Part shown: one piece after another, positions 15,001 to 18,000 of the stretch
Position numbering within the stretch: the first letter of the stretch is position 1
How the letters are laid out: each line of letters opens with the position of its first letter
Source: a virus
Lineage: Duplodnaviria > Heunggongvirae > Uroviricota > Caudoviricetes
IMG/VR virus record: IMGVR_UViG_2521172734_000008
Coordinates: 1-21,054 of that record
Direction: 5' to 3' (one strand)
DNA length: 21,054 nt
Position numbers: made by a program

Positions 15001-18000
15001 AGATGAAGATGAAGATGAAGATGAGGAATAAATATCATGCAATACGATGAATTCCAGGCTGAAGCAACAGCCAATGGTATACGAACTGGCAGTATGACGA
15101 TTGATTATCACGACGCCATACGTCGTCTGGATGCCGGAGAATTCGATACTCCTAATGTGCGAGGTTTACGTATCCTTCAGTGTCTGGCGCAAGCCGACGA
15201 AGCAGGATTACTGGGTAAACTTCCGGTTGAGATGAAGGTTGCTCAGTGGCGATGGTTGTATGTGACGACATTCATCAACGAAGAAGAAGACAAGAACGGC
15301 ACAATTGATATCTTGAATGAACACGGAACAACTGAACACGCCGTGGTATATAACGGGATGTATGGGTTTATGACGATATATCCCGGCCCCATTCGATTTG
15401 CCTTACAACAGTATATTGAATGGAATTTAATTCAAAAATACGGCGAAGCTGAAGGAATGGGAAGAGCGCTGTTTCTTTATCAGAAAATGCTCACTACTTC
15501 CCCTGATAAAGGTTTCATTCTTTCAGATATGGGTCGAGAAGGGCTTGAAATCCTTCTGGATGAAATTATTAACGAAATGAATACTCATGGCATGCAATCC
15601 GAAACAGATATTAAGTAAAAGGGACCACATGACCGTTATCGAGCATATCCAGGAAAATCCAGATTGCAGTAGAGAAGATATATCCCTCGCACTTGGAAGA
15701 AGCGCAACTTCTATCAGTAATGAATTATCACGGTTATTGTGGAATGGGTTAATAGTACGAACTGGAGAAAAAAACAAAATGATTCTGTACTGCGTAAACA
15801 ATCTGCCGTTTGGATACAGCAATCCCCTAAGTGTTATGTTCAACCAGTGATAGTGATGTTCCGACAGGAGAGAGCAGAGAAAGGGGAATCAGCATGAAAT
15901 TTTCCAAATTTTCTGAGTTGGTGAATCGTATTTTGTCCAACAACCACAGCCATCGTCGCGATATGGATGTAACGATCGTTGTTCATTCGCCTGGCAGCAT
16001 TGGTTCAACACCCTCAGTTGAAGTTCAGTCAATTCACGCTGGTTTTGATTGGGATTCCGGGAAAGTGCTGATTTTCCCAGCACAGCCACTGACCACTCTA
16101 ACACCAGAACAGATTACTGATATTACTGATAGTGTGCGCAAAGGTCAGTCCTGGCACGCATATCAGGAATACAAGAAGCATAAAGAGCAGTTGGAAAAAT
16201 TATCGATTGAACTTGATGCCGCAAAACAGCGCATTGCAGAGCTGGAGGGTAATTTCACGGCGCTGGCAGCGGAGAATGCGGGGCTAAAGGCGATATGTGA
16301 TGACCGTCGCAGGTTCATCATGAATGGGGTGCAGATGGGTTATATCAAGGTGCCAGCAGCGGAAACAGATCCAGACCTTGAGACAATTCGCATTGCTATA
16401 TCACCACAAAAGCCCATTCCAGCCACCGATGCTTTCCTGGCTGAAGTACGGGCGCAGGGCGTGGAGATGTTTGCGGAGTGTGCATACACGCTTGAACATC
16501 ATGATCACGCAGTAGCCTTCGCCGCTGAGCTTCGCAAAGGAGGCAACCAGTGAGCAAGATTGACTATCAAGAACTGCGCGAGGCGGCGGAACAGGCAACG
16601 CAAGATGAATGGGTAGCATATATTTTGCCGGGTCATAACGGCATTTATCCTGCGCGCACGTCTGAGGGTAGGCATTGCGGATACTTTATTGACTGGCCTG
16701 GCGTCTGTCAGGGGCGGGAGAGCATCAACATGAGCATCAGAACCTACGCAGTGAATTGCAATGACGCATGGCTAAACACCGAAGGTGATGACATCTCCGG
16801 CTCATACGTTAAGTACAAAGACCATCAGGAAGTGGTTGCCGCTCTTGAGGCCAAGTGCGCGGCGCTGGCAGCGGAGAATGCGGGAATAAAGTCTGCAATT
16901 CCAGAATCACGGGATATTGAAGATGACAATGACAATATGGATGACGTATCTCTCGCGGAAGACTTCGGGTTCAATCATGCAATAGAACGGATGAGGAGAC
17001 AGATACCTGAAACGCCAACCACTGATGCTTTCCTGGCTGAAGTCCGGGCGCAGGGGGTGGATGCTGCTATAGAAGCTGCAAAAAATCTGGTGGCCCAAGA
17101 ATATGAGTATAAGGATTTCAAAGCGGCGCAGAGTGATTGCTGTATGTACCCTGGTTCAGACCTGGTAGGGAAGGTTGAAATGACTGAGTGGTTAGTTGAC
17201 TTTGCTGCCCAGCTTCGCAAAGGAGGCAACCAGTGAGCGAAATTAATTACCAGGCACTGCGTGAGGTGGCGGAACGTGCAATTCCAGCAATGGAACGCCT
17301 GTTAATGTTGCCAGCTGATGATGACTTGTTAAGTGAACAGGAACTTAAAGATTACGGTGTGGATATTGATGCGCTCAACGCCTTCAAATTTCTGACCGGA
17401 CCAGAAACCGTGCTGGCACTGCTGGATGAACGGGAAAGAAACCTGCAATACATCAAAAGCCGCGATCAGGAGAACGAGGATATTGCGCTAACGGTAGGGA
17501 AGCTGCGCGTTGAGCTTGAAGCAGAAAAACAGCGGGCAAAAGTTCTATTTATGGAAAATGCTCGGCTTAAGTCAGGCATAGCCGGTCTGATACACCTCGG
17601 TATTCGATATGCAGATGTTGAGGTCATGAAAATTGCTGGAGATGCCCAGCTTTCTACCCCATGCACTGACAGCATCATAAACAGCATTGCAACAGGCATT
17701 CGCATCAAAGGAGAGTGATATGGCGTTAACACACCACGAACTCTGTCAGATTGCGTACAAGTTCCTTAAGCGCAACGGGTTCAAGGTTTGCTTTCATGAC
17801 CGCTTTGTTGCTGTAACCAGTACCGGAGAACAGCCAGATGCTATGGGATTCAGAAATTCAGCATCATGCCTGATAGAGGCGAAGTGTTCTCGTGCTGACT
17901 TGTTGGCAGATAGAAAAAAGCGTTTCCGTAAAAATCCCTCACTTGGCATGGGCGACTGGCGATTCTTTATTAGTGAGCCGGAAATTATTTCAGTTGAGGA

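Follow-up and report, generated by a model that had tools for sequence, protein, structure and literature searches.

How does a single prophage come to carry three consecutive genes that are largely unrelated in sequence and are joined by identical junctions? This question is raised by a 21,054-nucleotide (nt) stretch of viral DNA (the window; positions 1 to 21,054 of IMG/VR record IMGVR_UViG_2521172734_000008), in which three genes of interest, referred to here as A, B and C, lie head to tail on the plus strand. Gene A (15894..16553) starts with ATG and encodes 219 amino acids (aa) ending in ...AAELRKGGNQ-stop, gene B (16550..17236) starts with GTG and encodes 228 aa ending in ...AAQLRKGGNQ-stop, and gene C (17233..17718), again with a GTG start, encodes 161 aa with the C terminus GIRIKGE-stop. 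Both A/B and B/C overlap by a GTGA stop/start. A first reading of this DNA, made without database searches (the sequence-only reading), had described the genes as three tandem Ea22-like paralogs forming a recombination-prone modular array. Our analysis makes it probable that the array is a translationally linked mosaic run of Ea22-family genes, in which short conserved islands act as substrates for homologous recombination that joins modules in frame.

The most conspicuous islands are the two junction cassettes, exact 28-nt copies of AGCTTCGCAAAGGAGGCAACCAGTGAGC on the plus strand at 16528..16555 and 17211..17238. Read in the frame of the upstream gene, the cassette (...CTT CGC AAA GGA GGC AAC CAG TGA) encodes the LRKGGNQ-stop tail of A or B. 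It also contains the Shine-Dalgarno (SD) sequence AAGGAGG (16537-16543 and 17220-17226), which is followed after a 6-nt spacer by the GTG of the next gene (B at 16550, C at 17233), and this GTG overlaps the upstream TGA as GTGA (16550-16553 and 17233-17236). The same few bases would thereby play a triple role, supplying the C-terminal residues of the upstream protein (LRKGGNQ), the SD of the next gene (AAA GGA GG) and the stop/start overlap (CAG TGA/GTGA). Both the exact repeat and its double meaning had been pointed out in the sequence-only reading, and both were confirmed. The 28-mer occurs at these two sites of the window only; allowing up to 3 mismatches added no further copy, and 100 shuffles yielded none. 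Its identity cannot be extended by even one base on either side, and the cassettes form the core of an 88-nt repeat with 81% identity (16511-16598 and 17194-17281).

Further islands lie within the genes. Island D2 is an exact 23-nt plus-strand repeat, GCGCTGGCAGCGGAGAATGCGGG, which encodes ALAAENAG and was found, at the positions originally proposed, in gene A (16260..16282) and gene B (16862..16884), within a 56-nt repeat of 80% identity (16234-16289 and 16836-16891). Island D3 comprises 47 nt on the plus strand, with a copy in gene A (16419..16465, encoding PATDAFLAEVRAQGV) that is 91% identical to the copy in gene B (17015..17061). It includes the previously reported 43-nt repeat with 3 mismatches, which is real and begins at 17019 in B, while its copy in A begins at 16423 and not at 16424. 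Finally, gene C ends in a tail cassette, GGCATTCGCATCAAAGGAGAGTGA (17695..17718, plus strand, encoding GIRIKGE-stop), whose 24 nt are identical to the end of lambda ea22 and contain the SD AAGGAG (17708-17713); after a 6-nt spacer, the following gene starts with ATG at 17720. All repeats in the array are direct, the number of inverted pairs being zero, and the 23 to 28 identical bases sit within 47 to 88 nt of 80 to 91% identity.

Are the three genes then copies of one another? Proteins B and C match the Ead/Ea22-like family PF13935 (97.7 bits, 1.1e-27, and 108.8 bits, 4.2e-31, respectively; gathering score, 27 bits), with the model match starting at residue 2 in both. In the same Pfam search gene A gave no match to PF13935, only coiled-coil matches below threshold. 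Its relationship to the others lies in phrog_368, the PHROG common to B and C, which is matched by residues 17-219 of A (1.4e-59) via the C-terminal modules; the N-terminal 113 residues form a separate module (phrog_6026), and the C-terminal two thirds fall in phrog_368. The leader M-S-x-I-x-Y/S-Q-x-L-R-E is present in B (MSKIDYQELRE), C (MSEINYQALRE) and lambda Ea22 (MSEINSQALRE), and A, which begins with MKFSKFSELV, lacks it. The identity between A and B is 34% over 163 aa and confined to short islands, and that between B and C is 26%, essentially in the leader only. Islands of similarity, separated by unrelated sequence, are formed by the leader, the tail and the repeats D2 (ALAAENAG) and D3 (TDAFLAEVRAQGV). 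Since the low identity is restricted to these short islands, the sequences indicate that A, B and C are not recent duplicates. The term paralogs was thus an overstatement; membership in the Ea22 family stands for B and C, and A falls outside it by Pfam.

These values bear directly on a simple alternative, namely, that a single ea22 gene was recently duplicated in tandem and the copies then diverged, with the cassettes surviving as remnants or being kept alike by local gene conversion. Such a history would account for the head-to-tail order, the common phrog_368 assignment and the identical junctions. We nevertheless regard it as very improbable, given the island-like pattern of identity and the different N-terminal domain of A. 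Moreover, each module is found elsewhere with other partners, and both A followed directly by C and B-C under another upstream gene exist separately, so that assembly of the array by crossovers is possible.

That such rearrangements have taken place is evident from natural variants whose flanks are 99 to 100% identical to the window. Strains JKHS016, 100416 and FAH (loci L002, L218 and L221) carry a single 246-aa A/B hybrid gene that equals A before the D2 core and B after it; the switch between the parental sequences falls inside the 23-nt GCGCTGGCAGCGGAGAATGCGGG, and the locus differs from the window by 602 nt. In GCA_000460755.1 (L226) and in L231, A is followed directly by C and B is missing, a difference of 683 nt, with the parental switch in L226 lying inside the 28-nt cassette. 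In SCU-105, RM12579, S1-JOR-02-A and 12A, a DUF4752 gene and an unrelated 104-aa gene replace A (X-B-C arrays). Here homology to the window begins at 16534, within cassette 1, and the foreign gene has the C terminus ...GCAAAGGAGGCTGCCAGTGAGC. The complete A-B-C array was found 100% identical in two independent assemblies (L229 and L233), which rules out an assembly artefact, and in strain 15A it is interrupted by IS903B. One crossover in the cassette between a prophage of the A-C type and one of the X-B-C type would yield the array of the window.

Thus, the idea of a recombination-prone modular array is supported by the A-C, A/B hybrid and X-B-C variants, and comparison across prophages showed copy number and module order to be variable rather than invariant. 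The further proposal that the gene boundaries are the switch points holds for the cassettes, as seen in the A-C and X-B-C arrays, but is too narrow, because the internal repeats D2 and D3 switch as well. All four combinations across D2 were detected when 5,426 E. coli genomes were searched with probes at a coverage of at least 80%: A-A in 29, B-B in 74, A-B in 47 and B-A in 10 genomes (9 of the last as single-piece matches). Probes across the cassette detected the A-B junction in 24 genomes, B-C in 186 and A-C in 9. Partial matches to the 1.8-kb array region as a whole are present in 2,422 of the 5,426 complete E. coli genomes, and at least 80% of it is covered in one genome only.

The same behavior was apparent when the sequences on either side of each island were classified in viral contigs. 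Aligned on the cassette, 95 unique cassette-bearing contigs show high column identity solely between about -10 and +65 (counted from the start of the cassette), with identity dropping to ∼50% on both sides. At 112 junctions with the exact cassette, 24 upstream and 19 downstream sequence types occurred in 50 combinations. The corresponding numbers are 26 by 15 types in 65 combinations for D3, 11 by 19 in 36 for D2 and 14 by 24 in 58 for the C tail. Genes upstream of the cassette have many different N termini, and a few of those downstream of it do not belong to Ea22 at all. The islands are therefore short conserved tracts with unrelated, combinatorially assorting flanks; this assortment, the anatomy of the array and the natural recombinants that switch inside identical tracts are all directly observed.

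We also aligned the window with every fetched locus, kept alignments with an identity of at least 93% and mapped their ends, as breakpoints, onto islands that had been set beforehand from the window's own repeats. Although the islands make up 28% of the array sequence, 132 of 232 homology ends in the array, and 43 of 64 distinct end positions, fall inside them, statistics that are indicative only because the loci were chosen on cassette or leader and include clonal copies. Nearly all remaining ends cluster at 17401-17439 and 17506-17531. These two further breakpoint clusters lie at either edge of gene C's lambda-like coil core (LLDERERNLQYIKSRDQENEDIALTVGKLRVELE..., 17401..17531, plus strand).

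The position of the joints is also what separates our interpretation from a model of the type proposed by Hendrix, in which recombination is random and illegitimate, selection leaves only those joints that fall at boundaries, and the islands are conserved purely for their function and guide nothing. Illegitimate recombination has been proposed for many lambdoid mosaic joints (PMC2327257), and functions can plausibly be assigned to the islands: the tail serves as an SD, the leader is kept at the protein level, and D2 lies in a predicted helix, albeit in a low-confidence model. However, the switches lie within 23 to 28 nt of perfect identity, in register and free of scars, and they include intragenic sites. 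Flank combinations of the reciprocal type were found as well, and repeated joints within the only identical tracts are not expected from random events. We consider this model improbable.

Sharply bounded repeated cassettes with a combinatorial outcome might also suggest a dedicated, programmed diversity system, with the cassettes as sites of a site-specific recombinase in a shufflon-like or cassette-switching arrangement. These two features are all that speaks for it. The repeats are direct without a single inverted pair, no invertase, reverse transcriptase or additional recombinase lies nearby (the prophage integrase with xis being the only one), and several unrelated island sequences behave alike. 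In addition, the cassette is fully accounted for by coding, SD and start functions. Such a system is thus extremely unlikely to operate here.

According to the homologous recombination reading, each gene would be pieced together from variable segments, with short islands conserved across the family lying between them. These islands would have functional roles as SD, start, N-terminal helix and coil. The junction cassettes, the GIRIKGE tail and the two internal repeats (23 nt, ALAAENAG, and ∼45 nt, TDAFLAEVRAQGV) would be the sole stretches of near identity between otherwise unrelated modules, and the islands are taken as recombination sites because no other near-identical DNA connects these modules. 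Exchange could occur between co-resident prophages or between repeats of one array, either dependent on RecA or mediated by phage single-strand annealing recombinases, and would generate whole-gene insertions and deletions, hybrid genes and replacements of a neighbor, all in frame. The tract lengths are within the range reported to be sufficient for phage annealing recombinases, ∼30 bp being enough for Red-beta (PMC3945230). The homologous rather than illegitimate origin of the joints, as well as the enzymes acting, we infer from these features.

The cassettes also raise the question of why the end of one Ea22 protein should be so strongly conserved. Dydecka et al. (PMC7093339) reported K/R-G-E at the end of all Ea22 proteins and called its significance unknown. 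In a set of 181 unique leader-bearing Ea22 open reading frames (ORFs), collected from viral contigs with the cassette or leader, 124 have the C terminus [KR]G[GE]x0-2. Among these 124 tails, 122 use the codons AAA GGA, while GGA makes up 24.5% of the glycine codons elsewhere in the same ORFs, and the next ORF (at least 40 codons) begins between -8 and +1 nt of the stop in 117. Because the codons are nearly always AAA GGA and the next ORF starts at the stop, the conserved C-terminal K-G-G/E of Ea22 proteins can be read from these sequences as the SD AAGGAG(G) of the following gene. This offers a new and simple explanation for the tail left open in the literature, namely, that it is the ribosome-binding site of the next gene; no mention of such a reading was found in the later Ea22 literature that we searched. 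In lambda, the ea22 tail is kept although the sequence 3' of it differs, which would fit a tail that doubles as a mosaic boundary.

Similar arguments apply to the start codons. In a sample chosen solely on leader codons, 170 leader starts are GTG and 28 are ATG, and the following base is A in 198 of 198, giving a universal NTGA overlap with the upstream stop. Codons 3 to 16 were compared in loci picked on the upstream cassette alone, so that leader codons lay outside the selection pattern. These codons vary synonymously (TAT/TAC, CAG/CAA, GAC/GAT, GCA/GCG) with the leader peptide kept, and since the peptide is retained through this variation, the region appears to be translated in the GTG frame. 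Together with the Pfam model match at residue 2 and the GTG start of lambda ea22, this argues that the GTG starts assumed in the sequence-only reading are probably used in the A-B-C array. Ribosome profiling has confirmed that ORFs of the lambda exo-xis region are expressed, according to a review (PMC8614690). Gene C itself is annotated in RefSeq (PGAP) either with the GTG start (161 aa, WP_001289973.1) or, in many genomes, with an internal ATG (Met20; 142 aa, WP_052930532.1), as seen across the relatives L001, L002, L220 and L223. The internal call deletes the conserved Ea22 leader, and this looks like a systematic annotation inconsistency for the Ea22 family.

NTGA stop/start overlaps with an SD inside the upstream gene are the textbook anatomy of translational coupling in many bacterial and phage operons. 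The array conforms to it, with GTGA at A/B and B/C and AAGGAGG 6 nt upstream, inside the upstream ORF, and the same arrangement is seen at all 198 leader-bearing starts and in lambda upstream of ea22. We thus infer, from this anatomy, that translation of B and C would depend on that of the upstream gene. These junctions differ from coupled overlapping genes in that no sequestering RNA structure was detected. In the lambda genome (L123, 1590-1640, minus strand), the ea22 GTG likewise overlaps, as GTGA, the stop of a reading frame upstream of it (...AGA GGT TCG AAG TGA). This frame carries no annotation in NC_001416 and is presumably orf73, which is listed beside ea22 in PMC8614690. A programmed frameshift from A to B, which lies in the -1 frame, was considered as well; no slippery heptamer before the stop was seen by eye, and no dedicated scan was run.

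Several observations weigh against the proposed mosaic, translationally linked array. The comparison loci had been selected by cassette or leader, and many of them are near-clonal copies, so that counts and P values derived from them are not independent; the selection favors the junction islands in particular, D2 and D3 being outside its criteria. No recombinase of the Red, RecET or Erf type was detected by Pfam and PHROG in the early-left operon within the window, so that the task would fall to RecA or to enzymes supplied by co-resident prophages. Leader codons change synonymously and it is the peptide that is conserved, which means that at least part of each island is retained for the protein's function rather than for recombination. 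As for coupling, RNA folding at the three junctions gave stabilities not above those of shuffled sequences (z = -1.2, -0.7 and -0.5), and since the junctions fold no better than shuffled ones, there is no structural sign that coupling is obligatory. AAGGAGG is in addition a strong SD that could drive independent initiation.

How does the array compare to what has been described for this family and for lambdoid phages in general? The mosaic nature of Ea22, its three-part build and its variable C-terminal domains have already been published (PMC10834534, PMC7093339, PMC8614690), and a pro-lysogenic phenotype has been shown for ea22 of lambda and of Shiga toxin (Stx) phages (PMC7093339). As in the lambda and Stx phages, the genes of the array occupy an early-left position upstream of xis and int and are built as block mosaics with variable C-terminal domains. 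Judged by eye from leader, coil core and tail, gene C is the closest of the three to lambda Ea22. It shares with it the start (GTG AGC GAA ATT AAC within GTGA in lambda) and the leader MSEINxQALRE, the coil core LLDERERNxQYIKxRDQENEDIALTVGKLRVELE and the identical tail GGC ATT CGC ATC AAA GGA GAG TGA (GIRIKGE-stop). Unlike in these phages, there are three consecutive family-related genes here instead of one, gene A is without the Ea22 N terminus, and B has an inserted, probably beta-rich N-terminal domain and a different C-terminal domain ending in LRKGGNQ. The tetrameric state and the pro-lysogenic role have been shown only for the lambda and Stx proteins.

Exchange of lambdoid modules via short conserved flanking sequences was proposed by Clark et al. 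in 2001 (HK620), as summarized in PMC2327257, and Rad52-like phage recombinases have been described to carry out relaxed homologous recombination (PMC2327257, PMC3945230). The islands resemble these linkers in being short conserved tracts with unrelated flanks that are common to a subset of related phages and have the joints inside them. In contrast to those linkers, several of the islands are intragenic and join protein domains in frame, and the gene-boundary linker additionally comprises C-terminal codons, SD and stop/start overlap. The phenomenon is thus of a known kind, combining lambdoid mosaicism at short conserved linkers with translational coupling, and the locus reveals neither a new mechanism nor a protein function. 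What it adds is a linker with several uses at once, linkers inside genes through which domains are swapped, the natural occurrence, among sequenced E. coli, of both the parents and the products of reassortment, and the SD explanation of the tail. It provides a clean, base-pair-resolved natural example of gene and domain reassortment at short conserved tracts in lambdoid prophages, and it singles out the Ea22 family as an accessory module that is shuffled fast in prophages of pathogenic E. coli.

Regarding function, homology to lambda Ea22 leads us to expect that A, B and C would form coiled-coil oligomers with variable terminal domains and bias the phage toward lysogeny. A sequence search against all PDB chains, including the structure solved for the C-terminal domain from lambda Ea22, returned no matches for the three proteins, and scans with PADLOC and NCBIfam yielded nothing for them or their neighbors save weak winged helix-turn-helix matches in the ORF at 15587-15850. 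A single-sequence AlphaFold2 model of protein B shows helices at residues 92-110 and 139-224 but is unreliable, with a mean predicted local distance difference test (pLDDT) score of 47.6. The exact protein A occurs in 507 indexed blocks of a public assembly collection, and protein B (P0001) is encoded identically on 283 contigs, all homologues returned for it being 97 to 100% identical. A search for the protein B locus with patterns from the variable region returned a single 3.2-kb contig (L124), which at 43% identity is irrelevant.

Polymorphic effector or toxin loci, such as those of CdiA-CT after the VENN motif and of Rhs tips, use a short conserved motif to bound exchangeable C-terminal domains. 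The Ea22 loci may be likened to these in that a common scaffold carries sharply bounded variable terminal domains which appear to reassort between strains at a conserved motif. They differ in that no toxin/immunity pair, secretion apparatus or match to a defense model was found in the array, so that the likeness is one of evolutionary pattern only. It would be tempting to regard Ea22 loci as a polymorphic effector system, in which a coiled-coil scaffold bears swappable N- and C-terminal domains, the nucleotide-invariant linkers (the SD/stop/start cassette and the ALAAENAG and TDAFLAEVRAQGV tracts) are retained partly for in-frame shuffling between prophages, also across the divide between lambdoid prophages and 85- to 110-kb plasmids or phage-plasmids, and tandem co-translated members could form mixed oligomers. 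We hold this to be a doubtful, speculative proposition; if true, mixed oligomers would present more than one kind of effector domain in an arms race against the host or competing phages. Of the 3,996 places in which array segments were matched, 654 are on plasmids. Segments with 95 to 98% identity were observed in records bearing the name Punavirus P1 (H43-H45) as well as on many plasmids of E. coli with a size of 85 to 110 kb, one example being L234 (NZ_CP027443.1, 95 kb). The arrangement on these elements is similar, with Ea22, DUF4752, an A-like gene and, further along, a C-like gene. Judging from these matches, Ea22 modules seem to travel between lambdoid prophages and elements as large as plasmids or phage-plasmids.

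The setting of the array is that of an accessory region of the exo-xis type in the early-left operon of an E. coli prophage of the lambdoid group, as judged from its neighbors, with repressor-side early genes upstream and xis and int downstream. The order is small early genes and a LexA-type repressor, A-B-C, a phrog_9263 gene, a DUF551 gene, a DUF4222 gene, xis (the excisionase gene, 19449-19685, PF06806) and int (the tyrosine integrase gene, 19741-21054). No exo or bet gene of the prophage is present in the window. A promoter and terminator scan of 13000-20000 remained at chance level and gave no convincing signal separating A, B and C, an Rfam scan of 15600-18300 returned no RNA family, and the best explanation is that A-B-C form a co-transcribed run of three Ea22-family accessory genes. 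The gene next to C (17720..18235, plus strand, 171 aa, phrog_9263), whose SD lies within the C tail, is intact here; most of the E. coli relatives examined have it annotated as a "frameshifted" pseudogene of 179 nt.

Upstream of the array, the ORF at 15587-15850 encodes an 87-aa winged-helix (MarR-like) protein and overlaps the end of the preceding gene. Its match to phrog_1687 is limited to the C-terminal part (profile positions 65-143 of 162), and the ORF carries no PGAP annotation in relatives. The DUF4752 gene of relatives is inserted exactly at window position 15848, a further sharp mosaic boundary. In another early gene (14819-15031, encoding 70 aa), a perfect (GATGAA)7 repeat at 14983-15024 encodes a poly(Asp-Glu) C-terminal tail. 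This gene is called at 62, 64, 66, 68, 70, 72 and 74 aa across otherwise 99 to 100% identical prophages, which suggests copy-number slippage of the tract by one hexamer per step. On the minus strand at 10634-10822, a C4 antisense RNA (82 bits) and the Hfq-binding RNA isrK (62 bits) adjoin each other within or beside a Rha/antirepressor-like ORF (10025-10879), a site that corresponds to a c4-ant immunity module of the P1/P7 type in a lambdoid prophage. Finally, the STnc100 small RNA (139 bits) was found at 2077-2590 on the minus strand, on the late-region side of the prophage, adjoined by a cluster of three tRNA genes (Arg-tct, Arg-tcg and a tRNA with a CAT anticodon).

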